64,000 nucleotides of DNA from Gammaproteobacteria bacterium (GTDB lineage Bacteria > Pseudomonadota > Gammaproteobacteria > Steroidobacterales > Rariloculaceae), in assembly GCA_038125265.1 (NCBI GenBank), contig JAYPDM010000001.1, forward strand, positions 2,830 through 66,829, written 5' to 3'. Shown here in pieces: positions 10,342 to 52,469 of this stretch; position 1 is the stretch's first letter; each line of letters starts with the position of its first letter. The translations under genes were made by a program, and so were the position numbers. The notes under the pieces were generated by a model. The model did not search any database, was not told the DNA's origin, and saw only the letters and a program-made list of their open reading frames with translations.

Positions 10342-10345
10342 TGCT

Positions 10346-11434
10346 ATGAAAAGAAGAGAAATTTTATCCGGTCTTGCAGCAGCCACTGCGCTGACTGCCT
10401 GCGGTAATAATCAAAATAATACAACTACACAACTATCTACAGAGCAGTTTAACTGGAGGATGGTTACGACCTGGCTACCAAACTTCCCAGGACTGGGAAC
10501 CGGTGTTAATACCCTAGTTAAATACATAAGGGAACTTAGCCAAGGAAGGCTAAATATATCTGTCTATGGCGCAGGCGAGCTTGTTCCGGCTTTTGAAGTT
10601 TTTGATACTGTAGCACAAGGCGCAGTTGAGATGGGTCATGGAGCAGCCTATTATTGGCGTGGCAAAACAGAGGCTACGCAATTTTTTGCTACGATCCCCT
10701 TTGGTATGACAGCACATGAGATGAATGCTTGGATGTATTATGGTGATGGCCTTGATTTATGGCATGAGCTTTATTCTGAATTTAATCTAATAGGATTCCC
10801 TGCAGGAAATACTGGGGTGCAAATGGGTGGTTGGTTTAATAAACAGATCAATTCAATAGATGACCTCAGGGGTCTTAAAATGCGAATTCCTGGAATTGGC
10901 GGAGAAGTTTTAAGGAGAGCCGGTGGAACACCAATCAATCTTCCTCAATCTGAAATTTATACTGCTCTACAAACTGGAAGTATCGATGCTACCGAGTGGG
11001 TCGGGCCATATAATGATTTAGCAGCAGGTCTCCATGATGCCGCACAATACTACTACTATCCCGGATGGCATGAACCCGGTACCACCTTAGAGTGTATGAT
11101 TAATCTAGATGCGTGGTTAAGTCTACCGCCTGATCTAAGATCAATTGTGATGATTGCTTGCCAAGCTGCAAATTTAGATATGATGTCCGAATTTAATGCC
11201 AGAAATGCAAACGCATTATCAACCCTGATTAATCAAGAAGGCATTGACGTTCGACCTTTCCCAGAGGAAGTAATGGCGAGGCTAAAAAGTATCACTAATG
11301 AGGTCATTAATGAGCTAGCAACCGAAGATGCAAGGGTCGAAAAAGTATGGAATTCTTACCGAGAATTCCAAAGCGAGGCAAGATCCTGGCAGGAAGTTTC
11401 TGAGCAAGCATACATGGAAAGTACTGAGGAATAA
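10346..11434 (+). CDS. TRAP-transporter DctP-family substrate-binding protein (orphan; no DctQ/M adjacent)
   Basis: 362 aa. The N-terminus MKRREILSGLAAATALTACG looks like a Tat-type RR signal with a lipobox Cys. The body (WRMVTTW ... GELVPAFEVFDTVAQGAVEMGHGAAYYW ... TEWVGPYND) matches the DctP/family-7 solute receptor pattern. Confidence 0.8.
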   Translation: MKRREILSGLAAATALTACGNNQNNTTTQLSTEQFNWRMVTTWLPNFPGLGTGVNTLVKYIRELSQGRLNISVYGAGELVPAFEVFDTVAQGAVEMGHGAAYYWRGKTEATQFFATIPFGMTAHEMNAWMYYGDGLDLWHELYSEFNLIGFPAGNTGVQMGGWFNKQINSIDDLRGLKMRIPGIGGEVLRRAGGTPINLPQSEIYTALQTGSIDATEWVGPYNDLAAGLHDAAQYYYYPGWHEPGTTLECMINLDAWLSLPPDLRSIVMIACQAANLDMMSEFNARNANALSTLINQEGIDVRPFPEEVMARLKSITNEVINELATEDARVEKVWNSYREFQSEARSWQEVSEQAYMESTEE

Positions 11435-11437
11435 ATT

Positions 11438-12061
11438 ATGAAAATTTATTTAAATATAATATTTGCATTGGCTATGTTTGGCTGTGCCTCCAGCACGATG
11501 ATCTCAGGAGATCATTCTGATCCAACAAATAATTTATTACCTTCCCATATCGACGAATCATGGACTAGCTTTTTTTCTGGAGAAGATCTTAATCAATTTA
11601 CTTTTATCGGTGATGCGGAGTGGGAGATTATTGATAATTACGTGGAAGCTGTCGATGGATTGCCAAAATTTTTAGTAACCAATTCCGCATTTAGAGATAT
11701 TGAGCTGTATGCAGAATTTTGGACCAGCCCAGATGCCAATAGTGGTATTTTTGTCAGATGCCAAGATATACATAACATCGCAGCTGGTACATGCTATGAA
11801 GTTAATATTTTTGACCAAAGACCTGACCAAAGATACAGAACAGGAGGCATTGTAAACTTCGCTGAGCCAATGGGATTTCAAAATGCTGCAAATCAATGGA
11901 ATCAATTTCTAATACGCATCGTTGGAAATCATATTGAGGTTTACCTCAATGATGAACTCATGGTTGATATGGAGGACGATACTTTCTTTGCTGGGCCCAT
12001 TGCCTATCAATGGAGCGCAGGAACTGTACGATTCAGAAACCTCTGGTTTCGAGTTTTATAA
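11438..12061 (+). CDS. DUF1080 (3-keto-disaccharide hydrolase-like, concanavalin-fold) lipoprotein
   Basis: 207 aa. Signal peptide with lipobox (AMFGCASS). The DUF1080 pattern is W-x-x-F ... F-x-D-I/F-E-L ... NSGIF-x-R ... YE-x-x-I-x-D ... TGG ... WN ... I. Confidence 0.75.
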   Translation: MKIYLNIIFALAMFGCASSTMISGDHSDPTNNLLPSHIDESWTSFFSGEDLNQFTFIGDAEWEIIDNYVEAVDGLPKFLVTNSAFRDIELYAEFWTSPDANSGIFVRCQDIHNIAAGTCYEVNIFDQRPDQRYRTGGIVNFAEPMGFQNAANQWNQFLIRIVGNHIEVYLNDELMVDMEDDTFFAGPIAYQWSAGTVRFRNLWFRVL

Positions 12062-12063
12062 GG

Positions 12064-12597
12064 TTGGTACACATACTCAAAGACCAAAAAAATCAATTTG
12101 GTATAGTCTCAATAGCCTTACACTGGATTGTAGCTATTGCATTACTCATGATACTCCTATCAGGCAGAGAATTAGCTAATGGAAACCCTAATCTATCCTA
12201 TGATGAAATCTTACTTGTACATGCTCGCGTGGCATATTTAGTATTGCCTTTTTTTCTTTTCAGGCTCTATTGGAGGCTAAGGCAGGGCTATCCAGAATTT
12301 ACTATCTCAAAGAAACTGAGTCATTTTATTCCTCCTTTTCAATACTTTATCTTGATAAGTATATTTTTTAGCTATTTATCCTGCTACTTCATCCTAAATA
12401 TGGATACAAATTTATGGTATTTAAAGCAGGAGAATATAGCGAGCATGACCACGGAAATATCGATTCATACCGTTGTTGCGAAGACTGCCTTTTTATTAAT
12501 AATCATTCACATCATAGCTGCAAGCATACAGATCCTATTTGCAAAGAATGTAAATGCACGCAGGATGATATCATTACCTGATAATGAAAAAACTTAA
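12064..12597 (+). CDS. Prokaryotic cytochrome b561 (CybB-like di-heme membrane protein)
   Basis: The ORF track gives 12010. The first 18 codons overlap the upstream gene, so a TTG at 12064 is plausible, though the start is uncertain. Four TM helices carry the four conserved His positions (IALHW, LLVHARV, SIHTVVA, IIIHIIAA), arranged as in E. coli CybB. Confidence 0.7.
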   Translation: MVHILKDQKNQFGIVSIALHWIVAIALLMILLSGRELANGNPNLSYDEILLVHARVAYLVLPFFLFRLYWRLRQGYPEFTISKKLSHFIPPFQYFILISIFFSYLSCYFILNMDTNLWYLKQENIASMTTEISIHTVVAKTAFLLIIIHIIAASIQILFAKNVNARRMISLPDNEKT

Positions 12598-13066
12598 TCA
12601 TTACATCACCTTTTTACTTTTACTATTCTCATCTTCTCTTGCGGCTGAGAAAGTAAATTACTTTATAGCCTATACCCAGCAAGAAAATGGCATTGTAATT
12701 GAAAATTGGGATGGTTATGAGCCAACGCTTGGATTAAATTTTTCTCAGATCATTGATTATTGCACCTCAACTCATTCTAATTATTCAATACCTACTTTTG
12801 AGGTCTATGATTTGACTGACCTTCAGATCAATTGTTATGACCGCGATGGGAATGAGATTAATGAAGTGCCATTAATCCTAAGTATAGAGAGCCTGGGAGA
12901 TATTTTTAACCTGAGTGGTGCAGAGATTTATTTCACGGATAGAAACTATCCCTACATCAGATTATGGGCAGAATGCATTTATGAGAGATCTGGGGGATCA
13001 AGGTTTACTTTTCCTATAATTTTTCTTAATGATAAAGCCTTTATTTCAAAAATTATTCAACCATGA
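12584..13066 (+). CDS. Hypothetical secreted protein (4 Cys), no recognisable family
   Basis: 160 aa. N-terminal signal peptide FLLLLFSSSLAAE. Overlaps the upstream gene by 14 nt and the downstream gene by 4 nt (ATGA), so it is translationally coupled. Confidence 0.6.
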   Translation: MKKLNHYITFLLLLFSSSLAAEKVNYFIAYTQQENGIVIENWDGYEPTLGLNFSQIIDYCTSTHSNYSIPTFEVYDLTDLQINCYDRDGNEINEVPLILSIESLGDIFNLSGAEIYFTDRNYPYIRLWAECIYERSGGSRFTFPIIFLNDKAFISKIIQP

Positions 13067-14058
13067 TACCTGAGGCAGTGATTGAGAGTTATGGCCTTGG
13101 CCATGGTTCAATAGAAGCTATCAATACTGGACTGATTAATGAAACTTGGAAATTATCAACCAAAAAGGATGATTTTATTTTTCAAAAAATAAATCCTATT
13201 TTCCCAGAACAAATCCACGAATCGATTCATAAAATCACAAAAATACTTTTGCAAGATGACATTGGCTCTGTTGAGATAATAAGAACTAAAAATGGAGAAC
13301 TAATCCATAAAGAAAATAATGAAATTTGGAGGGTTACGAAATATATCTCAGGTGATAATTTTGAGATTACCCCAGATGCTGAGTATGCTTTTAGTCTTGG
13401 GAAGGGATTGGCTCAAATGCAAAAATGCCTTCGTAATGTAAAGCTTGAACTTCCCATAAGAACAATCAAAGAAACCGATAAGTGCTATGAAGAGTTAATT
13501 TCTCTCATAAAATTGAATCAAGATCACTCACAGATTAAAACTATTCATTTGTATGCTGAAGAAATAAGCAAAGAGTATGATGCTCTTGATCAAAGGTTAC
13601 AAGTTGATGATAGTCAAATGATCCATGGGGATCCTAAAATATCTAATGCAATCTTTGTAAACGGGTCATCTGAAATTAGAGCTTGGATAGATTTTGATAC
13701 CATCGCCGTTCACAACCCCTATGACGAAATTGGAGATGCTATTCGGTCTTGGTGTAATCCATTTCATGAATCAGATACTGAGAGTCAGATCGATCAAACA
13801 TTACTTAAAGCAGCTCTAGAGGGCATTCTATATTTTGATATGTATAGAGAAATAAACAGTAAATCAGTCATTCAATTTTATACAAAGAAAATAACGCTTC
13901 GGTTGGCAATGCGTTTCTTGACAGATGCAATGACAGAAAATTATTTTTATTGGGACAAAAGCAAATACGATACGCTCTCGGAACAAAATATTGCGAGAAC
14001 ACGCGCGCAACTCAATTTACTGAAATCAATTGACTCTGCATTTATGACACTTCTGTGA
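13063..14058 (+). CDS. APH-fold phosphotransferase, NahK-like (candidate sugar / N-acetylhexosamine anomeric kinase)
   Basis: 331 aa. N-terminal GLINETWKL...FIFQKINPIFPE, catalytic loop IHGDPKISNAIF, metal-binding WIDFDTI and C-terminal MRFLTD...ARTRAQL align motif-for-motif with my recollection of Bifidobacterium NahK (GHINTTY...YILQQMN..IFPD; HNDTKLNN; IDLDT; MRFLADY...VRTRTQ). The function is inferred. Confidence 0.65.
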   Translation: MIPEAVIESYGLGHGSIEAINTGLINETWKLSTKKDDFIFQKINPIFPEQIHESIHKITKILLQDDIGSVEIIRTKNGELIHKENNEIWRVTKYISGDNFEITPDAEYAFSLGKGLAQMQKCLRNVKLELPIRTIKETDKCYEELISLIKLNQDHSQIKTIHLYAEEISKEYDALDQRLQVDDSQMIHGDPKISNAIFVNGSSEIRAWIDFDTIAVHNPYDEIGDAIRSWCNPFHESDTESQIDQTLLKAALEGILYFDMYREINSKSVIQFYTKKITLRLAMRFLTDAMTENYFYWDKSKYDTLSEQNIARTRAQLNLLKSIDSAFMTLL

Positions 14059-14095
14059 CAGTAAAAAACTAAAATTCTTATATATTCAGCGATCT

Positions 14096-15409
14096 ATGAT
14101 AAACAATTATCAAATTGTTGGTATAACTTGGCGCGATCATCTTCAAGAAGAGATTGAAAAAATCTCATTAAATGAAGAACAGGTCCTTAAAGCCCTGCAG
14201 TTATTAAAGAAAAAATATCAGGTTGAAGAGTGCGCCTATCTTAAAACCTGTAACAGAATTGAGCTCTTTGTCTATTCAGAAGATCTATCTATACATAAAA
14301 ACATTAGAATGATTTGGCACGAAATCATAGGTGAATTTGGAATAGCAAAATCTGAGAGCATTCAATTTAGATCATGGAGAGGAGAAGGAGCGTTTGAGCA
14401 TCTTTTTATGGTTGCCTCTGGTCTCGATTCTGCCTCTTTAGGAGAAAGTGAAATTTTATATCAGCTAAAGAATGCAAAAGAATTTGCCCAAAAAAATCAC
14501 TTGATTGCATCAGAAATTAACTTCCTCTTCGAAGAGTCATTCAAAGTTGCTGCCCAAATTAAGAGCAATACATTGCTTAACTCAGGAAAACAATCATTAT
14601 CTGAAATCGCTATAAATATTTTTACAAAATCCAATCTATCTGGCAAAGATTTGAATATAGGTCTCATTGGAACATCCCCTGTAATTATTAATGCACTTAA
14701 GTCACTTCTAGAAAGAGGATTTAAGCCTACTTTAATGAATAGAACACTCAAAAATATAAAAGATCTGCAAGATAAGTACCCTATCCAAATGATCAGCTTA
14801 AAAGATCTAAATGCTGGCAATCATCATTTCGATGTAATCTTATCTGCCACAAGTGCTACAGAAGAAATTATCAATGAAGAATCACTAAAAGCCATATTTA
14901 CGAACCAAACAAAAATATATATCGATTTAGCAAGCACTCCTGACGTCTCATCAGATGTATGTAAACGAAATCACATAAACTATTACTCCTTAGATGATGT
15001 GATTGAAAAGGCAAAATACACTCATCAAACTCGTCAAGCAGAAGTAGCAAATGCAAGAGAAATTATTGATAGCTATTTGATCAATTTAAATCAAAAAATT
15101 AATGATAAGAAATACAACTCAATTTATTCTGCAATACAAAAAAGATATCAATATACCGCCTCAGAAGGTATTAAAAGATTAATCAAAAAAAATGCATTAA
15201 AACTTGACCAAGATGCTATGAATGAAATTGATATTTGGTGTTCAGCGCTTGCAAGAAGATTTGCTCACATTCCAACCTTAGGAATAAAAGGCTTACTGAA
15301 TAATGGTCCAGACGGTTCTGTTGAAGCATTTATTGAGGGTCTTGATGAAAAGTTTAAAACTGAACTTAAGCTCGCAATACTAGAAACTAAAGGGGGCAAC
15401 CTTGATTAA
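14096..15409 (+). CDS. hemA: Glutamyl-tRNA reductase
   Basis: 437 aa. Active-site motif LKTCNRIELF. SxLGExEIL-type motif DSASLGESEILYQLK. Central NAD(P) domain IGLIGTSPV. First gene of the heme run. Confidence 0.9.
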   Translation: MINNYQIVGITWRDHLQEEIEKISLNEEQVLKALQLLKKKYQVEECAYLKTCNRIELFVYSEDLSIHKNIRMIWHEIIGEFGIAKSESIQFRSWRGEGAFEHLFMVASGLDSASLGESEILYQLKNAKEFAQKNHLIASEINFLFEESFKVAAQIKSNTLLNSGKQSLSEIAINIFTKSNLSGKDLNIGLIGTSPVIINALKSLLERGFKPTLMNRTLKNIKDLQDKYPIQMISLKDLNAGNHHFDVILSATSATEEIINEESLKAIFTNQTKIYIDLASTPDVSSDVCKRNHINYYSLDDVIEKAKYTHQTRQAEVANAREIIDSYLINLNQKINDKKYNSIYSAIQKRYQYTASEGIKRLIKKNALKLDQDAMNEIDIWCSALARRFAHIPTLGIKGLLNNGPDGSVEAFIEGLDEKFKTELKLAILETKGGNLD

Positions 15410-16298
15410 GATAGGAACCAGAGCCTCTCATTTAGCTAGAACTCAAGCACTTTTGGTTGAGAAAAAACTAAATGATATTGGGATAGAAACTAAAATAGTG
15501 ATCATCACAACTGAGGGCGATAGGAATTTAAATAAGAACTTTTCTGAAATAGGCTCTCAGGGAATATTTGTCAAGGAACTGGAACAGTCATTATTAAAAC
15601 AAGATATTGATATTGCTGTGCACTCAGCCAAAGACCTGCCGATCCAGCTAGATCAAAAATTACAAATTGGTGCCTACCTAAAAAGAGAAGATCCTGCAGA
15701 TATACTGCTTAGCTTCCATGAGATAAATGAAAATGTATTAAAGAGTAAAAACCTAACCATTGGCACTTCATCAATTCGAAGATCTAAATGGATTAGTCAT
15801 TTTTACCCTCATATCATTGTTGAAGGTCTAAGAGGCAATGTACCCACTAGAATAAAAGCTCTAGAAAATATTGATGTAATTATATTAGCTAAAGCAGGTA
15901 TGGACCGTTTAAATAAGTCACCTCTGTCTGATAAACCCAATATCGATCTTAAAAAATTACATATGCATAGGCTTGATCCTAATCAATTTGTATCTGCACC
16001 GGGTCAAGGCGCCATAGCCATTGAATGCTTAAAAGCAAGCAAAGATATACTGGATTCCCTTAATAGAATTAATCATAAAGAAACCCAAACTTGTATCGAT
16101 CATGAAAGGATAATGCTTGGTCACTTGAGTGGTGGTTGCAATGTTCCCCTTGGCGTTTATGTCAAAATGATTAATCAAAATAATTCTTTTGAGATGCATA
16201 TTGCTCATGCATTAAATAACAAATTTATTAAGAAAACATTTCAATACAATCAGATAAATCAAGTTGAAGAAAAAATATTACAAGAATTGAAATCATGA
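15402..16298 (+). CDS. hemC: Hydroxymethylbilane synthase (porphobilinogen deaminase)
   Basis: 298 aa. N-terminal IKIGTRASHLARTQA, plus GNVPTR. The cofactor cysteine motif GGCNVPLG is present. Overlaps hemA by 8 nt. Confidence 0.93.
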   Translation: MIKIGTRASHLARTQALLVEKKLNDIGIETKIVIITTEGDRNLNKNFSEIGSQGIFVKELEQSLLKQDIDIAVHSAKDLPIQLDQKLQIGAYLKREDPADILLSFHEINENVLKSKNLTIGTSSIRRSKWISHFYPHIIVEGLRGNVPTRIKALENIDVIILAKAGMDRLNKSPLSDKPNIDLKKLHMHRLDPNQFVSAPGQGAIAIECLKASKDILDSLNRINHKETQTCIDHERIMLGHLSGGCNVPLGVYVKMINQNNSFEMHIAHALNNKFIKKTFQYNQINQVEEKILQELKS

Positions 16299-17017
16299 GC
16301 ATAAGCGGAAAAAAAATACTTATCACCAGAGATAACGAGGGCAATAAAGATTGGCAAGAGAAATTACGCTCTTTGGGGGCCATAGTAAAGGCCCTAGACT
16401 GTATTAGCATTCATGAATTTAATATGGATAACGAGAAATTAATTGAGATTAGAAGAATAATTGAAGCTTCAGAATATGTGATCTGGACTTCAGCGAGGGG
16501 CGTTTTTTATTCAAGAAAATTTTTTAATGGTCATAATACTTCAAAGTTTTGTGCTGTAGGTATTCCCACCGCTAATGAGATAAAAAAATATTTTGGTGAT
16601 CCTTATTTAATTAGCCAAGAAATGAATGCAAAAGGCCTCAGTCAAATTATTATTAAAAATGAGGACCTTAAAAATAAAAAAATCTTATTACTCTTGGCCA
16701 TCAATGCCTCAGATGTTCTAGAAAAGGAACTTCAAAATGCTGGTGCCAATGTAAAACGAATTAATATCTATGAGACCAAACCAATAATGCTTAATGATCC
16801 AATTTTATTAAGCTCACTAGATGTAGATCATATTTTCGTTGCTAGCCCAAGTGCAGCGAAGGGCCTAAAAAATAATGTAATTTTCGACCGTTCGGTCAAC
16901 GTTTACCCTATTGGGGTGACAACAAAAAAAACTTTAGATAAGTATCAAATTAAAACGCAGCCAATTCCAAAATCCACAGGACTGGAAGGTCTAATAAATC
17001 AATTAAATAATAACTAA
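16295..17017 (+). CDS. hemD: Uroporphyrinogen-III synthase
   Basis: 240 aa. Size, two-lobe pattern (ILITR ... WTSARGV ... FVASPSAAKG) and position between hemC and hemB. ATGA overlap with hemC. This family is weakly conserved, so confidence is moderate. Confidence 0.75.
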   Translation: MSISGKKILITRDNEGNKDWQEKLRSLGAIVKALDCISIHEFNMDNEKLIEIRRIIEASEYVIWTSARGVFYSRKFFNGHNTSKFCAVGIPTANEIKKYFGDPYLISQEMNAKGLSQIIIKNEDLKNKKILLLLAINASDVLEKELQNAGANVKRINIYETKPIMLNDPILLSSLDVDHIFVASPSAAKGLKNNVIFDRSVNVYPIGVTTKKTLDKYQIKTQPIPKSTGLEGLINQLNNN

Positions 17018-17019
17018 CT

Positions 17020-17988
17020 ATGGGTAGAGAGTTTAGAATCAATCAAGAAATCAGGGATAGCATAGCTGAAACATCATTATCGCGCTCAGATCTAATAATG
17101 CCCTACTTTGTAAATGACTCAAGTCATTCTATAGAAATTTCTGCAATGCCTGGAATATTAAACCATTCAATAGGTTCTCTAATTTCTAATGTTCAGGAGC
17201 AGTTAAAATTTGGTATTAGTTCCATGCTTCTCTTCGGAAGTACAGAAAATCAAAAAAATAAAACTAATGATGGTAGCTATGCTTATCACGAAGAAGGCAT
17301 TACGCAGACAGCAGTGCGTGCCTTAAAAAAAGAATTTGGTAATGACCTTACTATTATCACAGATGTGTGTATTTGCTCATTCACAAATCATGGTCACTGT
17401 GGTGTCGCTCAAGGAGAGAATATTCTTAATGATGAGACCCTTCCCATCCTTGCAAAAATTGCAAAAAGTCACGCAGATGCTGGAGCAGATATCATTTCAC
17501 CGTCAGATATGATGGATAACAGAGTGCAATTTATCTCAGATTATTTAAAGGAAGAGATTAATCGAAAGATTCCATTATTTAGTTATGCCGCAAAATTTGC
17601 TTCTTCTTACTATGGGCCCTTTAGAGAAGCAGCAGATTCATCACCTAAATTTGGTGACAGGAAGAGCTATCAAATGGATTACAGAAATTCTAATGAAGCC
17701 ATGAACGAGATCCAGGAAGACCTAGATCAAGGTGCTGATGGAATTATTTTTAAACCTGCTTTAGCTTTTTTGGATATCTTAGCTAGGGCAACCAAAAAAT
17801 TTGATACTAGAAAGTTGGCTTATAATGTCTCTGGTGAGTATTCAATGGTAAAGGCAGCGGGCATGAAGGGATGGATCAATGAAAAAGAAATTATTATAGA
17901 AAATCTTTTTTGCATGAAGAGAGCAGGTGCGACTGACATTATTACTTATCATGCATTAGAAGTTGCAAAAAATAATTGGATTGAATAG
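17020..17988 (+). CDS. hemB: Porphobilinogen synthase (ALA dehydratase), Zn-type
   Basis: 322 aa. Cys-rich metal site DVCICSFTNHGHCGV (Zn-dependent class). Schiff-base lysine regions SYAAKFASSYYGPFR and KPALAFLD. Confidence 0.93.
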   Translation: MGREFRINQEIRDSIAETSLSRSDLIMPYFVNDSSHSIEISAMPGILNHSIGSLISNVQEQLKFGISSMLLFGSTENQKNKTNDGSYAYHEEGITQTAVRALKKEFGNDLTIITDVCICSFTNHGHCGVAQGENILNDETLPILAKIAKSHADAGADIISPSDMMDNRVQFISDYLKEEINRKIPLFSYAAKFASSYYGPFREAADSSPKFGDRKSYQMDYRNSNEAMNEIQEDLDQGADGIIFKPALAFLDILARATKKFDTRKLAYNVSGEYSMVKAAGMKGWINEKEIIIENLFCMKRAGATDIITYHALEVAKNNWIE

Positions 17989-17990
17989 TA

Positions 17991-19280
17991 ATGCATATAG
18001 AAAAATCTAAAAAATTATATGAGCAAGCGTGTAAAGTTATTCCTGCAGGTGTAAGCTCACCGGTAAGGGCCTTCAAGGCAGTGGGTGGTAATCCAATCTA
18101 CATGAAGTCTGGTCAGGGGCCCTTTATTCATGACGTAGATGGTAATCAATACCTTGACTTTGTTATGTCATGGGGCCCACTTATACACGGTCACGCCAAT
18201 CAAAAAATTATTCAAAAAATAATTGAAGCTGCTCATAATGGGACTTCTTTTGGCACGCCTTGTGAGGATGAATTAAACCTCGCAAGGTTTATTGTTGATT
18301 CTTATAAATCCATAGATCAAGTGCGTTTTGTCTCATCAGGGACAGAAGCAGTCATGAGCGCAATAAGACTGGCTAGAGGCTTCACAGGTCGAGATCTTAT
18401 TATCAAGTTTGATGGTTGTTATCATGGACATGTCGATCCCTTGTTGGTTTCTGCCGGTTCTGGCTTAGTTACTCTGGGAAATCCTTCATCTCTGGGAATT
18501 CCACACGAAGTTTCTAAGCAAACCATCTCTCTTCCGCTAAATGATATTGAACAAGTTAAGAGAGCATTTATTGAGTTTAAAGATCAAATTGCAGCTGTAA
18601 TCATTGAGCCAATTCCTGCTAATAACGGCTTATTGCTTCAAACAAAAGAATTTATCTTAGGGCTTAGGGAATTATGTGATGAAAATCATGCATTGTTAAT
18701 ATTTGATGAAGTTATCAGCGGCTTTAGGGTCGCTCAGGGAGGTGCCCCAGAAATATTAGACATCAATCCTGACCTTGTAACATTTGGCAAAGTAATTGGA
18801 GGAGGTCTCCCCGCCGGCGCATTTGGTGCTACTAGAGAGATAATGAATCACATTGCACCAATTGGAGGTGTTTACCAAGCAGGCACTTTATCAGGAAATC
18901 CATTAGCAATGGCTGCTGGCTTTGCAAGCCTACAACTCCTTCATGATGAAAATAGTTGGGTATATCTTGAAAGCCTAGGTTCTTATCTCGAGGAAAAAGT
19001 TAAAGTCATGGACTTTAATGAAAAATTTAATGTTAGTTTTGTCCGACAAGGTTCCATTTTTTGGTTTGCACTTGATACAAATATAGCACCTAGAAGATCA
19101 GAGGATATTAATGCTCAATCAGAGGAAAAATACGCTTCGATATTTAATGGCTTACTAAAAAATAATATTTATATCGCTCCTAGTATGTATGAGGTTGGAT
19201 TTCTATCCACATCACATAATAGAGAACATATAGATCACTTTATTCAATCTTTATATCACTTAATGGAATGTATAAATTAA
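17991..19280 (+). CDS. hemL: Glutamate-1-semialdehyde 2,1-aminomutase
   Basis: 429 aa. IPAGVSSPVRAF, SGTEAVMSAIRLARG, DEVISGFR and the PLP-lysine motif TFGKVIGGGLP. Confidence 0.93.
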   Translation: MHIEKSKKLYEQACKVIPAGVSSPVRAFKAVGGNPIYMKSGQGPFIHDVDGNQYLDFVMSWGPLIHGHANQKIIQKIIEAAHNGTSFGTPCEDELNLARFIVDSYKSIDQVRFVSSGTEAVMSAIRLARGFTGRDLIIKFDGCYHGHVDPLLVSAGSGLVTLGNPSSLGIPHEVSKQTISLPLNDIEQVKRAFIEFKDQIAAVIIEPIPANNGLLLQTKEFILGLRELCDENHALLIFDEVISGFRVAQGGAPEILDINPDLVTFGKVIGGGLPAGAFGATREIMNHIAPIGGVYQAGTLSGNPLAMAAGFASLQLLHDENSWVYLESLGSYLEEKVKVMDFNEKFNVSFVRQGSIFWFALDTNIAPRRSEDINAQSEEKYASIFNGLLKNNIYIAPSMYEVGFLSTSHNREHIDHFIQSLYHLMECIN

Positions 19281-20341
19281 ACCAAAGAAATACCCTTAGA
19301 CTGGAAATTACTTTTGTAGTTCTTCTGGTACTTACTTTTGGTCAAGTAATTTGGTGGATTTATGACCAAATACGGTACACAGAAAACGTCAATAGTAGCT
19401 TATTAAGTCAATATGAAATTGAAGCTGAACTTCTAGAGAGTCAAAATGCCTCGGAACCTTTAAGTATTCTAGACTTCCCATACCTCACCGAGGTAAATGG
19501 AGAGATTATGATTAGTGCAGATGCACTTGCTAATATCGAGGCCGAGAGAAGCTCAAGAATAAACCGTTATTTTTGGGAAGGAAGTTTCTTTATTATGGTT
19601 ATATCACTATGTATTTTAATCATATTTAAAACTATCAGTAAGGATCGGGCTTTGAATCGAAGGCAACAAAACTTTATTGCCTCTATCAGTCATGAATTAA
19701 AAACCCCCCTCACCAGCATGCGTCTTGCCGCCGAGACGATTGGAATAAATAACCATGATGAGAGATCAATCAGAATGGTAAATCGTATCCTCTCCGAGGG
19801 TGATAGATTGCTTCATTTGATCGAGAATCTACTTGATGCGAATAAGCTTGATGAAAAGAAATTCCAAGTTCAAGTCTCTCAATTTGCTATAAATAGCCTT
19901 ATTGAAAAAGTTTTAAATGGTCTTTCGCTTAGAGCTGAAGAAAGTGGAATTGAAATTCAAACAGCGATTAATGCTGATAAGGCAATTAATAATGACCCCT
20001 TAATCGTCTCCATTATCTTGAGAAACATTATTGAAAATGGTGTAAAAGCTTGCGAACAGAGCAATCAAAAGCTTATCAGGGTAGTCGCGAATAGAATTGA
20101 TGATGGAATTGAAGTAGAAGTCATAGATTCTGGCATTGGTATCCAAAAGGAAGAACAGGAAAATATCTTTGATAAGTTTTACCGAGTGGGAGATGAAAAA
20201 TTACGTACAACTTCAGGTAGCGGACTTGGTCTCTATATATGCCGAAAATTAGCAAAACTAACAAATATCTCCATAGAAGTTAGCAGTAAGGGTATTAATC
20301 AAGGATCAACCTTTAAAGTTTTAATAAGGGATATTTTCTAA
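19268..20341 (+). CDS. Sensor histidine kinase (2 TM, ~65-aa extracytoplasmic loop, no HAMP/PAS)
   Basis: 357 aa. H-box FIASISHELKTPLTSM, N-box NIIENGVKA, G1 DSGIGI, G2 GSGLGLYI. Two TM helices at about residues 12-32 and 100-120. Overlaps hemL by 13 nt. Confidence 0.9.
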   Translation: MYKLNQRNTLRLEITFVVLLVLTFGQVIWWIYDQIRYTENVNSSLLSQYEIEAELLESQNASEPLSILDFPYLTEVNGEIMISADALANIEAERSSRINRYFWEGSFFIMVISLCILIIFKTISKDRALNRRQQNFIASISHELKTPLTSMRLAAETIGINNHDERSIRMVNRILSEGDRLLHLIENLLDANKLDEKKFQVQVSQFAINSLIEKVLNGLSLRAEESGIEIQTAINADKAINNDPLIVSIILRNIIENGVKACEQSNQKLIRVVANRIDDGIEVEVIDSGIGIQKEEQENIFDKFYRVGDEKLRTTSGSGLGLYICRKLAKLTNISIEVSSKGINQGSTFKVLIRDIF

Positions 20342-21054
20342 TGTCTAATATCTTGGTAGTAGATGATGAAAAAGTCTTGGGTGAAAGCATTAAAGATGCT
20401 TTAGCCTCTGAGGGATATCAGGTCAAAATCGCATCGAATGGGCAAATTGGTTTTGACCTGATCTCTACCGAGCCTTTTGATCTGATCATATTAGATGTCA
20501 TGATGCCAGAAATAAATGGGATTGATCTTTGCAAGAAAGTCAGAGAAATGAATGTACTTACTCCAATTTTATTTTTGACGGTCAATAATGACCCTGAAGA
20601 TAGAATACTGGGGCTTGAGGCTGGGGGTGACGATTACCTCGGCAAGCCATTTCACTTAAAAGAATTATTACTTAGGACTAGAAAACTACTTCAAAGAACC
20701 CAGTGGTATGCGAGAACTAACGATAGTTTTGCATTTGCAGACATTTATATTGATTTTTCAAGTTACCAAATTGAATCTTGGGATAAGAGACTATATAACC
20801 TGACTCAGAAGGAAGCCATGATACTAAAACTTCTTATTGAGAATGAGGGAGCAACGGTATCTCGCGAAGATATCCTGGAGAAAATTTGGGGTTATGAATC
20901 TTATCCCTCTACTCGAACAATAGATAACTTTATCGTTCGCTTAAGAAAAAGAATCGAACGTAATCCAGAACAACCGACTCATCTGCATACTATAAGAGGC
21001 GTTGGTTATAAATTTACTAAAAATCCATTAGAGAATAATGATCCTGCACTATGA
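20341..21054 (+). CDS. OmpR/PhoB-family response regulator
   Basis: 237 aa. Receiver domain (ILVVDDE, LIILDVMMP, GGDDYLGKPF) plus winged-helix output (TRTIDNFIVRLRKRIE ... IRGVGYKF). TAATG overlap with the kinase and ATGA overlap with hemE. Confidence 0.92.
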   Translation: MSNILVVDDEKVLGESIKDALASEGYQVKIASNGQIGFDLISTEPFDLIILDVMMPEINGIDLCKKVREMNVLTPILFLTVNNDPEDRILGLEAGGDDYLGKPFHLKELLLRTRKLLQRTQWYARTNDSFAFADIYIDFSSYQIESWDKRLYNLTQKEAMILKLLIENEGATVSREDILEKIWGYESYPSTRTIDNFIVRLRKRIERNPEQPTHLHTIRGVGYKFTKNPLENNDPAL

Positions 21055-22064
21055 ATGATAAAAGACTTTTAAACGCCCTTAACCTTAAAGAAAATGACCA
21101 TAGACCTATTTGGATTATGCGACAAGCGGGTAGATACCTACCCGAATACAGGAAGGTCAGGGAAAAGTATAGCTTTAGAGAGGTCTCAGAAACACCCGAA
21201 CTCGCTGCGGAGGTGACACTTCAGCCACTCAAAAGATTTGAATTCGATGCTTCTATCATATTTGCAGATATCATTACTCCACTTAAGGCTATGAATATAA
21301 ATTTTGATTTTAATCCTGGCCCTATTATTGAAAACCCAATCAACAATCCAAAGCAGATTGATGCCCTGCCTGATAAGTTTTATGAGGTTGCCCCAGAGGT
21401 TCAGGCATCCTTAAAATTAGTTAAATCTGAATTAAAGTCTCAGCAAACACTTATTGGTTTTGGTGGAGCACCCTGGACCTTAGCTGCCTACCTTATCCAA
21501 GGAAAAGGACAAAAAGACTTCCCCGCAATAAGGCGCTTTGCGTCTGAACACCCTGAGTCTCTTCAGAGCCTTTTAACTAAACTCAGCGATCTTAGTATCC
21601 AGTACTTTAAAGAACAATTTGAATCAGGAGCAGAAGTTATTCAAATTTTTGACTCTTGGGCTGGTTTGCTTTCTATCAAGGATTGGCAAACATGGATACA
21701 ACCCCATTTACTTCATATTGTTAGCACTCTTAATGCATCTAACATCCCAGTAATTCTATTTCTACAAAATGCAAATCATTTGGTTGAGTATTACTGCGAA
21801 CTTCCAATCAGTGGAATCGGTGTGGATTGGAGAGTTGATTTATCAAAACTGCAATCAAATGTAAAAGATCATATAGCTGTTCAGGGCAACTTAGACCCAG
21901 CTATTCTGCTTGCAGGACCAGAAGTTACGAAAAAGTATGCTATAAATTTACTTAACAATATCGATCCTAAGGGTCATATCATGAATTTAGGTCATGGTAT
22001 TTTACCTAACACCCCCATCGAGAGTGTTCATGCACTAATTGAAGTAATAAAAAATGAGAGATAA
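21051..22064 (+). CDS. hemE: Uroporphyrinogen decarboxylase
   Basis: 337 aa. Signature PIWIMRQAGRYLPEYR. Also FDASIIFADI and the C-terminal NLGHGI. Confidence 0.93.
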   Translation: MNDKRLLNALNLKENDHRPIWIMRQAGRYLPEYRKVREKYSFREVSETPELAAEVTLQPLKRFEFDASIIFADIITPLKAMNINFDFNPGPIIENPINNPKQIDALPDKFYEVAPEVQASLKLVKSELKSQQTLIGFGGAPWTLAAYLIQGKGQKDFPAIRRFASEHPESLQSLLTKLSDLSIQYFKEQFESGAEVIQIFDSWAGLLSIKDWQTWIQPHLLHIVSTLNASNIPVILFLQNANHLVEYYCELPISGIGVDWRVDLSKLQSNVKDHIAVQGNLDPAILLAGPEVTKKYAINLLNNIDPKGHIMNLGHGILPNTPIESVHALIEVIKNER

Positions 22065-22067
22065 ATC

Positions 22068-22781
22068 ATGAAAATTTCAGAAACTACAGGACAAGTTGAT
22101 CTTAGTGAAAAAGGCCTCAATCAAGGTCAGGTGATCTCTCTTGACCGAAGATTATTTATGAAATTTAATGCCTTCTCAGGTCAAATTGACGAAAAAGAAA
22201 TTATAAAAAAATGCAGTGAAATTAATGGCGCTATTTATAGAGACATTAATGATCCAAATGGTATCGGTATTCTCATTCTTAGCGAAGATCCTGCCGAATT
22301 TATCAAGATCAATCAAGAGGTCTTATCTTTACCACCATTCTCTGATCTTGAGCATAAGCATGAATTTGATATGCTTGGTAGGACTTACTCGATCGGATAT
22401 GAAAATGATCTCGAGGAAGTTCTTATAAATAAACCCAAAAATAAAATAAAGGATCCAAATTTTAAATGGTGTGTATGGTACCCACTAAGGCGTGAAAAAA
22501 AGTTTTATGTACTTCCAGCTGACAAGCAAAAAAAGATCCTTGGTGAGCATGGAAATCTTGCTAAGCGCTATGGCTATGCTGGCCTTGCCGTGGATATCCG
22601 TCTAGCCTGTCATGGTCTTGATAAGCAAGATAATGATTTTGTAATTGGGCTACTCGGGCCTGATCTCCATCCTTTATCTGCAGTCGTTCAAGAGATGCGA
22701 CAAACGGAGCAAACAGCTCACTACCTAGAAAGTCTTGGTCCCTTTTTTATTGGCTTAAAAATTTGGGAGAATATCTCATAA
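22068..22781 (+). CDS. Chlorite dismutase-family heme protein, HemQ/ChdC-like (candidate coproheme decarboxylase)
   Basis: 237 aa. The C-terminal half (WYPLRREKKFYVLPADKQKKILGEHGNLAKRY ... HGLDKQDNDFVIGLLGPD ... FFIG) parallels Bacillus/Listeria HemQ (FYPMDKRR...W-Y-x-L ... MRAHG ... GLDD-x-x-WGVTLF ... FFVG), including the proximal His. It lies between hemE and hemH. Confidence 0.7.
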   Translation: MKISETTGQVDLSEKGLNQGQVISLDRRLFMKFNAFSGQIDEKEIIKKCSEINGAIYRDINDPNGIGILILSEDPAEFIKINQEVLSLPPFSDLEHKHEFDMLGRTYSIGYENDLEEVLINKPKNKIKDPNFKWCVWYPLRREKKFYVLPADKQKKILGEHGNLAKRYGYAGLAVDIRLACHGLDKQDNDFVIGLLGPDLHPLSAVVQEMRQTEQTAHYLESLGPFFIGLKIWENIS

Positions 22782-23815
22782 TGAATGAATATGATTCACT
22801 CTTGATTCTCTCTTTTGGTGGGCCAGAGGGTAAAGAGGATGTCTTGCCATTCCTAAGAAATGTACTTAAAGGCATTCCGGTAAAAGAGGAAACCTTTGAA
22901 GAAATTCAAGAGCGTTACGATCTATTTGATGGAGTGTCACCTATCAATGCCAATACAAGACTATTCATCGATGCCTTATCAAAAGCCCTTAAATTAAAAA
23001 GAATCATGCTTCCCATTTACTGGGGCAATCGAAATTGGCATCCGATGCTTAGCGATACGATGCAACAAATGAAGCAGGATGGAAGAAAAAAAACACTTGT
23101 ATTCGTTACAAGTATTTTTAGTTCCTATAGCGGATGCAGGAAATACCGCGAGGATCTCTATGAATCAAGCGCAACCATTGAGCATTCGATAGAGTTCGAT
23201 AAAATCAGGAATGGCTATAATCATCCTGGCTTTATTAAGGGAATTGCAAGTTGCATCAATGAGGTGATCAAAAGTAATAATCTGAGCAAAGATACCCAAG
23301 TATTTTTCACTGCACATAGTTTGCCAATCTCAATGGCAGAAAAAACAGAGTACCAAAATCAGCTCCTTGATAGCTGTCAATTGGTCGCAAATGAGATTGA
23401 ATTAAAAAACTGGAAGCTGTGCTATCAGAGCAACAATGCATCTTATGGAAATAAATGGTTAGAGCCAACGATTGAAGATGAAATAGTAGCTATGGGCCAA
23501 GTCCCTGAAAAAGAATGCATTGTGATGCCTATCGGATTTGTCTGTGATCATATGGAAGTTGTACTTGATCTTGATATTGATGCAAAAAATATCGCTTTGG
23601 AGAACGATGTAAACCTCTACAGAGCACCAACACTTGGTATTAACGAAAGCTTCATAGATATGGTGGTAGATCTTATCGACGAAAGAATACAAAAAAGAGA
23701 AGAAAAAAAGTTTCTTGGAGAAAGAGGCCCCAATCATAATCAATGCCCAATAGACTGCTGCCTCTCAGGCAGGCCTGGAAATCCAAAGCCTTCACTATGT
23801 GGTGAAGTTAGCTAA
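22781..23815 (+). CDS. hemH: Ferrochelatase with Cys-rich C-terminal extension
   Basis: The ORF track gives 22763. I prefer the ATG at 22781 (TAATG overlap with the previous stop), giving MNEYDSLLILSFGGPEG. Motifs FTAHSLP and VCDHMEVVLDLD. The C-terminal tail is QCPIDCCLSGRPGNPKPSLCGE. Confidence 0.9.
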   Translation: MNEYDSLLILSFGGPEGKEDVLPFLRNVLKGIPVKEETFEEIQERYDLFDGVSPINANTRLFIDALSKALKLKRIMLPIYWGNRNWHPMLSDTMQQMKQDGRKKTLVFVTSIFSSYSGCRKYREDLYESSATIEHSIEFDKIRNGYNHPGFIKGIASCINEVIKSNNLSKDTQVFFTAHSLPISMAEKTEYQNQLLDSCQLVANEIELKNWKLCYQSNNASYGNKWLEPTIEDEIVAMGQVPEKECIVMPIGFVCDHMEVVLDLDIDAKNIALENDVNLYRAPTLGINESFIDMVVDLIDERIQKREEKKFLGERGPNHNQCPIDCCLSGRPGNPKPSLCGEVS

Positions 23816-23819
23816 AAAA

Positions 23820-25172
23820 ATGCCTGAAGTATTTGATGCGATTATCATTGGTGCAGGTTTAAGCGGTCTCACTACAACTAAATATCTAAAAGATGCCAAT
23901 ATAAATACGCTAACACTTGAGGCATCTGACATCCCAGGCGGTCGACTAAGATCTATTGAAAATAAAGATAATTCTTTTGAATTTGGAGGTACTTATATCG
24001 GACATCATTATCATCGCTTTCAAAATTTAGCCAAAGAGCTCAATTTAACTACTATCGATGTGACTCCATTGATTAGCTTTTTTAAAAAACAAGATCTGGT
24101 CATAAATAAAAAATTAATTCATCAAGATGACTGGGAGAATCATAAGGAAAATACCTTGGATAAAGATCTAAAATCTATCTTACCCTGGAATCTGCATCGC
24201 ATCATTTTAGAAAAATATAACCCTTTTGATTCACCTGAAGCATGCCTTACTGCAGGAACCAAAGATCAATCTATGAAAGATTGGCTTCAAAGTCTGGGCT
24301 TTGATGACCAACAAATAAAATATATCTATGGAATGAATTTAAGCTATGGGACTGATGCTGATTCAATTTCCTCGCTGCAATTAATGCATCGAGCAAGTTT
24401 TTCTAAAAGACAAAGATCAGAATCTAAAGTTATTGGATTCACCTTGCTTGAAGGCATGAATGAACTAGCTAATCGGTATATCGATCATTTTAATTTAAAC
24501 ATATTATTCAAAAATCGAGTCAATAAGATCGTTAAAGAAAAAAGTCTTTTTTCAGTATCCTGTGAAAATGGAAATGAGTTTAGGGCGGAAAGAATTGTCC
24601 TCACTTGTGCCCCATCTACACTTAAAAATATAACATTTGATGATCATTCAAAAGAACAAAGGATTCAGTTTGCTGCAGAATTGCAATCCCAGCCCATGTT
24701 CCAAATTCATTTTAAGCATAAAAAGAATTTCTGGGAGCAAGATGGATATTCTCCGGCTATATTCTCTAATGAATATCTTGGGATGTGCTATCCAGTTAGG
24801 AATAAAGTTGATCCTGAGGAGATCATTGGTTTTACTGCTTGGGTTATGGGACAGAAGGCATTAGATCTTATCAAGCTTTCTGAAATGGATGCTTGCTCAG
24901 TTATTATAAATAATCTCCAGGAGATAAGACCGAGCATGAGAAATGCTATTGAATTAACTCATCTCAATGCCTGGTCGCATGAAAAAGATTTTTTAGGAGG
25001 GTGGACGTATTTCAAGCCAAACCAGTTCTTAAAATGGCATAAGCTTTTACAGTCAGAGAAAAGTAATATTTTCTTTTCTGGAGAGCATGCTTCTATTAGC
25101 TCGAGGGGAATAGAAGGCGCTATTGAGTCTGGAGAAAAGACTGCGAAAGAACTTTTAAATTCTATTCATTAA
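23820..25172 (+). CDS. Flavin amine-oxidase-superfamily oxidoreductase in the HemY/CgoX slot (function uncertain)
   Basis: The ORF track gives 23799. The ATG at 23820 gives MPEVFDAIIIGAGLSGL (GxGxxG), then EASDIPGGRLRS. C-terminal W-x-x-x-K-D-F-x-GGW-x-Y ... IFFSGEHASISSRGIEGAIESGEKTA looks more like monoamine/polyamine oxidases than like Bacillus HemY. Only its position after hemH suggests a porphyrinogen oxidase role. Confidence 0.6.
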   Translation: MPEVFDAIIIGAGLSGLTTTKYLKDANINTLTLEASDIPGGRLRSIENKDNSFEFGGTYIGHHYHRFQNLAKELNLTTIDVTPLISFFKKQDLVINKKLIHQDDWENHKENTLDKDLKSILPWNLHRIILEKYNPFDSPEACLTAGTKDQSMKDWLQSLGFDDQQIKYIYGMNLSYGTDADSISSLQLMHRASFSKRQRSESKVIGFTLLEGMNELANRYIDHFNLNILFKNRVNKIVKEKSLFSVSCENGNEFRAERIVLTCAPSTLKNITFDDHSKEQRIQFAAELQSQPMFQIHFKHKKNFWEQDGYSPAIFSNEYLGMCYPVRNKVDPEEIIGFTAWVMGQKALDLIKLSEMDACSVIINNLQEIRPSMRNAIELTHLNAWSHEKDFLGGWTYFKPNQFLKWHKLLQSEKSNIFFSGEHASISSRGIEGAIESGEKTAKELLNSIH

Positions 25173-26154
25173 AAAGATATTTCTCCGGTACCGGGATATC
25201 TTTAATCTTATTTAAATACTCGTCTCGATAGTCTAAATCGAATATTTTAGCAATATCATCCTTTTTTAAGTGCGATGATAATAAACTGATGAAATCTATA
25301 AGGTATGTTCTTGTAATCATTGACTGAGGAATACCAATCCATGTAGTGAGCTCTGGAAATAGTTTTCTAATATCTAACACATAAAGATCATTCAAATCAT
25401 TTGGCTCTATGGCCATTGAGGCAACAACACCAACGCCCATGCCCTTTCTAACATAAGTCTTTATTATGTCGGCATCTCTGGCAGTAAAGGCTATCCTTGG
25501 GGTTAACCCCTGGCTCTCAAAAGCTTGCAAAAAGGATGATTGTCCCTGAACGCTAAAAATATAAGTTACTAATGAATGCTTAGATAAAATTTCTAGGTTT
25601 ATGTTTCTTTTGTCCTTGGCTAGGGGGTGGCTTTTGGGGACAATAGCTACTCGACTCCACCTATAGATAGGAATTTGAAGGAGTTCATTGTTAAATGTAT
25701 TAAGTCCACTCGCAATAACACAATTGACTCTTTTTTCCCTGACTAACTCATCAATTTGCTCAGAGGTTCCCTGGTGAAGCTCTAGATCAATTAATGGGAA
25801 TTTATCTGCAAACTGCCTAATTATATCAGGGAGCACATATCTTGCCTGAGTGTGAGTTGTTCCAATTGATAAAACTCCCCTCTGTTCGCCTTTTGACTCT
25901 ATAGCAAAATTTTCAATTTCATCAATATCATTTAAGACCCTCTTTGCTCGCTCATATACTTCTTGCCCAGCATCAGTCAAGGAGGTCAAGCTTTTACCCT
26001 TTTTTAGAAATAACTTTATTCCAAGCTCTGATTCTAATAGTTTCAATTGCTTACTTATTCCTGGCTGACTCGTGAATAGTAATTCTGACGCTGCTGTTAT
26101 GTTTAGCCCACAGTCAACCGTTTGAATAAAGTATCGAAGTTGCTTTAAAGTCAT
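25162..26154 (-). CDS. cysB: LysR-family transcriptional regulator, CysB orthologue
   Basis: 330 aa. Near-collinear with E. coli CysB as I recall it: LRYxxxxV...LNxxxxxExLxTSQPGISKQ, TTHTQARYVLP, GLTPRIAFTARDADIIKTYVRKGMGVGVVASMA and the C-terminal IPVPEK. Confidence 0.85.
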   Translation of the reverse strand: MTLKQLRYFIQTVDCGLNITAASELLFTSQPGISKQLKLLESELGIKLFLKKGKSLTSLTDAGQEVYERAKRVLNDIDEIENFAIESKGEQRGVLSIGTTHTQARYVLPDIIRQFADKFPLIDLELHQGTSEQIDELVREKRVNCVIASGLNTFNNELLQIPIYRWSRVAIVPKSHPLAKDKRNINLEILSKHSLVTYIFSVQGQSSFLQAFESQGLTPRIAFTARDADIIKTYVRKGMGVGVVASMAIEPNDLNDLYVLDIRKLFPELTTWIGIPQSMITRTYLIDFISLLSSHLKKDDIAKIFDLDYRDEYLNKIKDIPVPEKYLFNE

Positions 26155-26223: not shown

Positions 26224-26315
26224 TGGCGGAGAGAGAGGGATTCGAACCCTCGAAGGACGTATATGCCCTTACTCCCTTAGCAGGGGAGCGCTTTCGACCA
26301 CTCAGCCATCTCTCC
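26224..26315 (-). tRNA. tRNA-Ser (anticodon GCU), type II with long variable arm, CCA encoded
   Basis: Folded by hand from the reverse complement GGAGAGATGGCTGAGTGGTCGAAAGCGCTCCCCTGCTAAGGGAGTAAGGGCATATACGTCCTTCGAGGGTTCGAATCCCTCTCTCTCCGCCA. Acceptor stem GGAGAGA/TCTCTCC. Anticodon stem CTCCC/GGGAG with loop CT-GCT-AA. Variable arm AAGGGC/GTCCTT. T arm GAGGG-TTCGAAT-CCCTC. Confidence 0.93.
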
Positions 26316-49291: not shown

Positions 49292-49297
49292 TCTAAA

Positions 49298-50431: not shown

Positions 50432-50449
50432 ATACTCCTCCGTTTTATG

Positions 50450-51676: not shown

Positions 51677-51693
51677 TTATGTTTCCTAATCTC

Positions 51694-52455: not shown

Positions 52456-52469
52456 GATAATGTTCTCAA

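Follow-up and report, generated by a model that had tools for sequence, protein, structure and literature searches.

A probable HemKR-type two-component system encoded inside the heme biosynthesis operon of an uncultured gammaproteobacterium

We analyzed a 64,000-nucleotide (nt) stretch of contig JAYPDM010000001.1 (positions 2,830 to 66,829 of the forward strand; here called the window) from a gammaproteobacterial metagenome-assembled genome (MAG), focusing on a histidine kinase and a response regulator encoded among heme biosynthesis genes. The two genes belong to a dense cluster of 11 genes on the plus strand at 14096–25172, arranged in the order hemA-hemC-hemD-hemB-hemL-kinase-regulator-hemE-hemQ-hemH-hemY (Table 1). 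Open reading frames (ORFs) and domain models confirmed the statement in an earlier note on this DNA that the two-component pair is embedded between hemL and hemE. The gene overlaps described there were also present: the kinase ATG at 19268 is located inside hemL (17991–19280), giving an overlap of 13 nt, the kinase stop and regulator start codons share TAATG at 20339–20343, and the regulator stop and hemE start codons share ATGA at 21051–21054. No terminator-like sites were found on the plus strand within the operon, and promoter-like sites were rarer than in shuffled sequences (26 versus 45.7). No convincing internal promoter or terminator that could uncouple the pair from the operon was identified.

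A search upstream of hemA for a direct-repeat site, which the earlier note had suggested for the region around 14030–14095, identified an exact match to the Leptospira hem-box, TGACA-N6-TGACA, as defined in PMC11426443. The box is located 36 nt ahead of the hemA ATG and is the sole exact match on either strand of the 64-kb window, where 0.09 matches are expected. A putative -10 hexamer was read from the sequence 20 nt past the box, and the hemA promoter has no good -35 element. The position of the -10 hexamer would place the centre of the box near -40 and the predicted transcription start a few nt from the hemA ATG, a geometry that may correspond to a class II, PhoB-like activator site. No Shine-Dalgarno sequence precedes hemA (14061–14098), and since the -10 hexamer ends 9 nt before the ATG, a leaderless or near-leaderless transcript is predicted.

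Table 1. Positions of the predicted regulatory elements and the genes of the heme operon in the window.
Feature	Position	Strand	Basis
hem-box TGACACTTCTGTGACA, direct repeat TGACA-N6-TGACA, predicted phospho-regulator site	14045..14060	+	exact motif match
putative -10 hexamer TATATT	14081..14086	+	20 nt past hem-box; read from sequence
hemA, glutamyl-tRNA reductase, operon gene 1	14096..15409	+	GlutR_N, Shikimate_DH and GlutR_dimer domains; TIGR01035 206.9 bits, slightly below cutoff 209.55
hemC, hydroxymethylbilane synthase (HMBS)	15402..16298	+	TIGR00212 266.9 bits, cutoff 164
hemD, uroporphyrinogen-III synthase (UROS)	16295..17017	+	PF02602 HEM4, 104 bits
hemB, porphobilinogen synthase (ALAD)	17020..17988	+	NF006762 404 bits, cutoff 297
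hemL, glutamate-1-semialdehyde 2,1-aminomutase	17991..19280	+	TIGR00713 542.3 bits, cutoff 527.3
HemK-like sensor histidine kinase, 357 amino acids	19268..20341	+	HisKA and HATPase_c (Pfam)
HemR-like OmpR/PhoB-type response regulator, 237 amino acids	20341..21054	+	Response_reg and Trans_reg_C (Pfam)
hemE, uroporphyrinogen decarboxylase	21051..22064	+	TIGR01464 378 bits, cutoff 303
hemQ/chdC-like chlorite-dismutase-family protein	22068..22781	+	PF06778 61.7 bits
hemH, ferrochelatase	22763..23815	+	PF00762 244.5 bits
hemY-type (copro/proto)porphyrinogen oxidase, last operon gene	23799..25172	+	PF01593 Amino_oxidase 148 bits

The kinase displayed the minimal architecture that had been described for it, with two transmembrane (TM) helices around a loop of about 65 residues. 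Hydropathy analysis placed TM1 at approximately residues 12–34, the periplasmic loop at 35–101 (approximately 67 residues) and TM2 at 102–124, and no HAMP or PAS domain was found with Pfam. Residue H142 is located 18 residues past TM2, with T146 at the H+4 position, and is followed by the N, G1, F and G2 boxes. All catalytic boxes are present (H142, N253/N257, D287-G-x-G, F301/F304 and G317-x-G-L-G), and H142, N253, N257, D287, G289, G291, F301, F304, G317, G319 and G321 are invariant in the family alignment. The AlphaFold model (mean pLDDT 81) predicts an unbroken helix from residue 84 to residue 161, which starts in the periplasm, crosses the membrane as TM2 and ends together with DHp helix 1, and a small beta-hairpin in the loop. 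The kinase family consists of proteins of approximately 330–390 amino acids that align over their full length at 30–49% identity and include short-loop variants. The mean frequency of the most common residue in this family is 0.66–0.75 in TM1, the juxtamembrane segment and TM2, 0.58 in the ATP-binding domain and lowest, at 0.45, in the central loop.

The co-occurrence of the pair with heme genes was surveyed in related loci, for which we used the best 80 of more than 590 matches from a scan of GTDB species representatives (1.27 Mb in all, five phyla; loci are designated by L numbers). Synteny was read by tblastn with the hem proteins of the window. In most of the related loci, the kinase and regulator genes are flanked by hemL or hemA on one side and by hemE or hemC on the other, and the orders hemL-kinase-regulator-hemE, hemA-kinase-regulator-hemE and hemL-kinase-regulator-hemC-hemB-hemE are recurrent. 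This synteny was observed in MAGs of Gammaproteobacteria, Rhodospirillales, Acidobacteriota, Planctomycetota and Gemmatimonadota, and also in Pedobacter genomes. Its recurrence across five phyla argues that the hemL-kinase-regulator-hemE arrangement is not due to chance. A minority of the related loci carry the pair apart from the hem genes, as is the case in L. biflexa.

The hem-box is conserved along with the gene order. An exact box was found in 19 of the 36 hemA upstream regions analyzed from the related loci, and 29 of the 36 contain a box with at most one mismatch; all are on the coding strand, 45–90 nt before the start codon. Across the entire 1.27 Mb of related loci, 19 of the 20 exact hem-boxes are located upstream of hemA, at 45–77 nt, and the twentieth is located upstream of a kinase gene. 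An alignment of the related promoters displayed a TAnnnT element, often TGnTAnnnT, 19–20 nt past the box, and L. interrogans has such an element at this distance as well. Five Pedobacter loci (L054, L057, L059, L075 and L076) contain the variant TTACA-N6-TGACA approximately 71 nt before hemA. No box within one mismatch was found in the other Pedobacter loci, suggesting that the motif may have drifted in Bacteroidota.

Three further observations concern the hem-box region. A near-leaderless hemA is also predicted in related loci in which the box starts 45–50 nt before the start codon (for example L006, L026 and L028). An ORF for an APH-family (aminoglycoside/homoserine-kinase-like) phosphotransferase at 13063–14058 ends inside the hem-box, so that its TGA stop codon is part of the second TGACA; homologues with approximately 30% identity are located upstream of hemA in several gammaproteobacterial loci (L009, L011, L015 and L051). 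A second hem-box-like site with one mismatch, at 49502–49517, is located inside ftsZ and was rejected as being within chance expectation (3.8 expected).

The earlier note was unaware of any previous description of a two-component system placed between early and late heme genes. This claim does not hold, since the Leptospira HemKR system is such a case: in L. interrogans its genes, LB014/LB015, are located between hemL and hemE (PMC2266917; PMC7567364). The system was characterized as Hklep/Rrlep, later named HemKR, and has been studied since 2008 (PMC2266917; PMC11426443). For L. biflexa, Louvel et al. 2008 reported phosphotransfer from His98 to Asp53, a requirement of the mutants for hemin or 5-aminolevulinate (ALA) to grow, and a replacement of the kinase loop that did not abolish function; they also noted the same hem linkage in Bdellovibrio (PMC2266917). 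Zavala-Alvarado et al. 2020 described hemA, hemC/D, hemB, hemL, the kinase gene, the regulator gene and hemE as a single H2O2-induced operon in L. interrogans (PMC7567364). According to Imelio et al., phospho-HemR activates hemA and represses hmuO, and ALA triggers a phosphatase activity of HemK that depends on T102 at the H+4 position; HemKR also affects tolerance to iron deficit (PMC11426443).

Direct searches did not recover the Leptospira sequences. A PLSDB plasmid search with HemL gave no Leptospira record. The top 150 matches of the kinase-family profile in a library of 1.84 billion representatives were family members and long multi-domain kinases, with no Leptospira among them, and the homologue search with the regulator was filled by family members at 54–60% identity, also with no Leptospira match. 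Peptides of the L. biflexa proteins were read from published mutagenesis primers (for HemK VWWWILG, the loop F31–S62, FFLSMLT and H98-EMKTPIASL; for HemR MKPRILLVE), and a degenerate back-translation of the H-box was scanned over metagenome contigs, which yielded two Leptospira-type contigs, L106 and L103. Contig L106 carries all of the primer-derived fragments, and its regulator is approximately 90% identical to PDB entry 4q7e across the receiver domain, which identifies this structure as the HemR receiver. A homologue search from the L106 HemK gave approximately 100 Leptospira or Leptospiraceae clusters, including L. interrogans. The L. interrogans locus (L111) has the order hemA-hemCD-hemB-hemL-kinase-regulator-hemE-hemN, with TAATG, ATGA and 11-nt overlaps at its junctions; its exact hem-box, TGACACTTCTTTGACA, precedes hemA by 53 nt and TATAGT by 19 nt.

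The L. interrogans and window pairs are both located between hemL and hemE in an operon led by hemA, with overlapping or coupled start and stop codons. Both loci carry the hem-box upstream of hemA at the same distance to the -10 element, and the spacers of the two boxes, CTTCTG in the window and CTTCTT in L. interrogans, are one base apart. Both kinases have a short loop between two TM helices, lack HAMP and PAS domains and carry the phosphatase motif H-E-x-K-T (PMC2266917; PMC11426443). The sensor framework common to the window kinase and HemK consists of a WW motif at the outer end of TM1 and a juxtamembrane motif, R-[IV]-N-R-x3-E-G-x-F-F-L, that enters TM2 in register in both. Only the juxtamembrane/TM2 motif aligns specifically between the two (11–13 bits); in the whole-sequence comparison, L103 scored 13.2 bits, which none of 500 shuffles reached, and L106 scored 5.4 bits, which was reached by 5 of 500. 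At the H+4 column of the family alignment (window residue 146), most family members carry serine, and the window and Leptospira kinases carry threonine; HisKA kinases depend on this position, which is T102 in L. biflexa HemK, for their phosphatase activity.

The loci also differ. In the window, hemC and hemD are separate genes, whereas they are fused in L. interrogans, and the operon ends with hemQ-hemH-hemY, that is, with coproporphyrin-type late steps, whereas Leptospira has hemN and a separate hemH. The L. biflexa pair (LEPBIa1423/1422) is not linked to the hem genes, and the host of the window is a gammaproteobacterial MAG. At the sequence level, the regulators of the two groups are 33–36% identical.

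The regulators provide the clearer link to Leptospira. Both are of the OmpR/PhoB type, and the predicted phospho-acceptor of the window regulator is D52. Its recognition helix is TRTIDNFIVRLRKRI, and in the signature comparison TRTIDNFIVRLR corresponds to RTIDN[AS]IVRLR of the Leptospira regulators and to RTVDNAV[VM]RLR of two other pairs associated with a hem-box. Thus, the window and Leptospira share RTIDNxIVRLR, and the signature RT[IV]DNx[IV][VM]RLR is common to the window family, Leptospira and the two further pairs, whereas the helices of the nearest solved paralogues differ (RTVDVTVRRLR, RVVDTVIKRIR and RLVNVHVQRLR). The window regulator scored 155.6 bits against L. interrogans HemR (36% identity) and 125.5 bits against the biflexa-clade HemR; the best solved paralogue scored 143.6 bits against the window regulator and 116.6 bits against L. 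interrogans HemR. Family regulators scored 91–134 bits against the biflexa-clade HemR, as compared to 98.8 bits for the best solved paralogue of the latter. The regulator is therefore nearer to HemR than to other OmpR-family regulators, by a modest margin and with the PDB as the comparison set.

Based on these results, we consider the pair a probable two-component system of the HemKR type, which would control tetrapyrrole synthesis while being encoded in the target operon itself. The earlier note had suggested a feedback sensor of heme, porphyrin or iron status, or of envelope stress, that tunes its own operon. The functional suggestion is supported with respect to tetrapyrrole status by the presence of an exact hem-box, the conservation of its position across phyla and the HemR recognition-helix signature of the regulator; nothing was found in favor of envelope stress.

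Several observations weigh against this assignment. The window kinase is only 23–25% identical to Leptospira HemK (44–58 bits), as compared to a phmmer score of 102 bits against Thermotoga HK853, so it was not found to be nearer to HemK than to other histidine kinases, and the kinase cores are not mutual best matches. Leptospira HemK scored just 97–119 bits against the family profile, whereas unrelated multi-domain kinases reached approximately 290 bits. The L. biflexa HemR receiver (4q7e) ranked only about 50th against the family receiver profile. The periplasmic loop of the window kinase, at approximately 67 residues, is twice as long as that of L. biflexa (32 residues; 32–40 in Leptospira), and the sensed signal could therefore differ. 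Finally, repression would be just as compatible with a site that covers the -35 region. In the reverse search from HemK, Leptospiraceae came first, followed by a mixture that included Bacteroidota-type members of the window kinase family; the first matches outside the Leptospiraceae were two short-loop kinases with partner regulators (P0630 and P0631). Because the similarity of the kinase cores is low, the pair is classified as HemKR-type by function and regulator lineage, and not by orthology of the kinase with Leptospira HemK.

By analogy with the Leptospira experiments, we propose the sign of regulation, ALA or a porphyrin as the signal, and a switch to phosphatase activity. In such a HemKR-type circuit, the membrane kinase would autophosphorylate on H142 and hand the phosphate to D52 of the regulator, and a head-to-tail dimer of the phospho-regulator would occupy the hem-box, as the motif, its position and its conservation suggest. 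Since the hemA promoter has a -10 element and no good -35 element, and the box covers its -35 region, the bound regulator would most likely recruit RNA polymerase, which would then transcribe the operon from hemA to hemY by class II, PhoB-like activation. The circuit would autoregulate positively, as the kinase and the regulator are translationally coupled within the operon transcript. Accumulated ALA or a downstream tetrapyrrole would shift the kinase into phosphatase mode through T146, and the dephosphorylated regulator would turn the operon down, giving negative feedback on the ALA-forming step.

The opposite sign, in which the phospho-regulator represses the hemA promoter from the hem-box and excess tetrapyrrole stimulates the kinase instead of the phosphatase activity, is quite unlikely. 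The downstream half-site, GTGACA (14055–14060), itself resembles a -35 hexamer, with five of six bases identical to TTGACA and a distance of 18–20 nt to TATATA/TATATT, so that occupancy by the regulator could occlude RNA polymerase; repression of hmuO by the Leptospira regulator sets a precedent (PMC11426443). However, phospho-HemR of L. biflexa activates hemA, and the mutants depend on hemin or ALA (PMC2266917; PMC11426443). Moreover, the spacing of 19–20 nt from the box to the -10 element is constant across phyla, and many of the related promoters have a TGn-extended -10 and a GC-rich, non-consensus -35 region, which is typical of activator-dependent promoters.

The pair might alternatively be a HemKR-like regulator of the operon that senses another signal, such as iron, oxygen or peroxide, or a periplasmic ligand of the longer loop, in which the structural model places a beta-hairpin. 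In L. interrogans, H2O2 induces the operon and with it the kinase gene (PMC7567364), and the effect of HemKR on tolerance to iron deficit (PMC11426443) is also consistent with such a signal. The central loop is, however, the least conserved part of the kinase, well below TM1, the juxtamembrane segment and TM2, short-loop variants occur inside the same family, and the L. biflexa kinase kept its function after loop replacement (PMC2266917). We thus regard a different signal as unlikely.

Database matches could suggest an ordinary phosphate- or envelope-stress-type system that was inserted into the operon by chance and controls an unrelated regulon. In NCBIfam, the kinase is matched best by PnpS and PhoR and the regulator by RpaB, MtrA and PhoB, and IMG names the pair CiaH and PhoP. 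These matches are far below the model cutoffs (PnpS 172.9 versus 400 bits; PhoR, TIGR02966, 152 versus 334 bits; PhoB, TIGR02154, 162.5 versus 296 bits) and cover the catalytic core only. PhoR/PhoB and other class II OmpR-family activators do combine a HisKA kinase with a winged-helix regulator, as in the window, and their direct-repeat sites with an 11-bp periodicity replace the -35 region, a geometry that is likely the same at hemA. In contrast to PhoR/PhoB, the window kinase lacks a PAS domain, the window pair has a different recognition helix and a different DNA motif, and there is no link to pst or pho genes. Together with the hem synteny across five phyla and the conserved hem-box upstream of hemA, these features make a chance insertion highly improbable, and this reading is effectively excluded. 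PhoR/PhoB, CiaRH and envelope-stress systems such as CpxAR or BaeSR were ruled out by model scores, domain content, synteny and DNA motif.

Other two-component systems for heme homeostasis were also compared, namely HssRS of Staphylococcus and Bacillus, and ChrSA and HrrSA of Corynebacterium. HssR is an OmpR-type regulator like that of the window, and HssS combines a HAMP domain with a larger extracytoplasmic domain. In the Corynebacterium systems, the kinases ChrS and HrrS are multi-pass proteins, and the regulators ChrA and HrrA belong to the NarL type. These systems are placed at loci for heme efflux (hrtAB) or heme utilization (hmuO) and respond to exogenous heme, whereas the window pair is located inside a biosynthetic operon with only heme biosynthesis genes as neighbors and no efflux genes nearby. 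The locus setting and the sensor architecture of HssRS or ChrSA/HrrSA were not found in the window, where the kinase has two TM helices, a loop of approximately 67 residues and no HAMP domain.

Two further loci with HemK-like kinases suggest that a HemKR-type module may reach beyond glutamyl-tRNA reductase (GluTR). In L112 (62% GC; 10001–13070), the genes for a HemK-like kinase with a short loop and for its regulator precede an exact hem-box (11715–11730), which in turn is 75 nt upstream of a gene for 5-aminolevulinate synthase (TIGR01821, 625 bits, cutoff 339). The same regulator and motif thus appear to control the enzyme of the C4 pathway in L112, suggesting that the module tracks the ALA-forming step, whichever enzyme makes ALA. 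In L114 (2472–7711), the HemK-like kinase and regulator genes adjoin genes for an MtrB/PioB-like porin and multiheme cytochromes, and a hem-box with one mismatch, TGACACTCTTGTGACG, is located 87 nt ahead of a multiheme cytochrome gene. This box may extend the regulon to heme-consuming proteins. A tentative proposal, which we hold to be possible but somewhat less than evenly likely, is that control of the ALA-forming step by HemKR and the hem-box is not peculiar to Leptospira but of ancient origin and widely distributed, occurring in Gammaproteobacteria, Rhodospirillales, Acidobacteriota, Planctomycetota, Gemmatimonadota, Bacteroidota and Leptospiraceae and acting on GluTR in most lineages and on 5-aminolevulinate synthase in at least one. 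The signal would perhaps be perceived by the conserved surfaces of TM1, the juxtamembrane segment and TM2, for example as a membrane-partitioned tetrapyrrole, and not by the variable loop.

With regard to the remainder of the operon, the HemQ-like protein is far below the NCBIfam cutoffs for HemQ (42 versus 235 bits) and is 57–62% identical to its positional counterparts in related loci of Gammaproteobacteria and Rhodospirillales. The late steps encoded at 22068–25172, a HemQ-like protein, ferrochelatase and HemY-type oxidase, resemble a coproporphyrin-dependent branch, in a host labelled as Gammaproteobacteria. Downstream, a LysR-family gene on the minus strand (25162–26154) converges on the 3' end of hemY with an 11-nt overlap, and is followed by a tRNA gene (26227–26315, minus strand). 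Elsewhere in the window, an AprA-like FAD oxidoreductase (5458–7164; adenylylsulfate reductase subunit A in IMG) hints at sulfur metabolism in the MAG, and the right-hand third (48428–63891) resembles a division/cell-wall (dcw) cluster, in which ftsZ (49298–50431) is the only gene identified.

The kind of system described here is already known and experimentally characterized, and the window pair is a further member. The biology at the locus itself is what the work on Leptospira already predicts, and the fresh element is the wide distribution across phyla; no description of the cross-phylum breadth of HemKR or of the invariant geometry of hem-box and promoter was found in the searchable literature. 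The window extends the Leptospira solution, in which a minimal membrane kinase and an OmpR-type regulator are encoded in the hem operon together with a hem-box, to an abundant uncultured gammaproteobacterium. Judging from the survey of related loci, at least five or six phyla appear to have this module in common, along with its DNA motif and promoter geometry. In databases, the proteins are annotated as "response regulator transcription factor", PhoP, CiaH or generic kinases, and HemKR-type proteins that now carry such labels could be given a correct annotation, with the hem-box motif serving as a ready predictor of the regulon. The nature of the signal sensed by HemK, which is difficult to address in Leptospira, could be resolved in culturable carriers of the pair such as Pedobacter.

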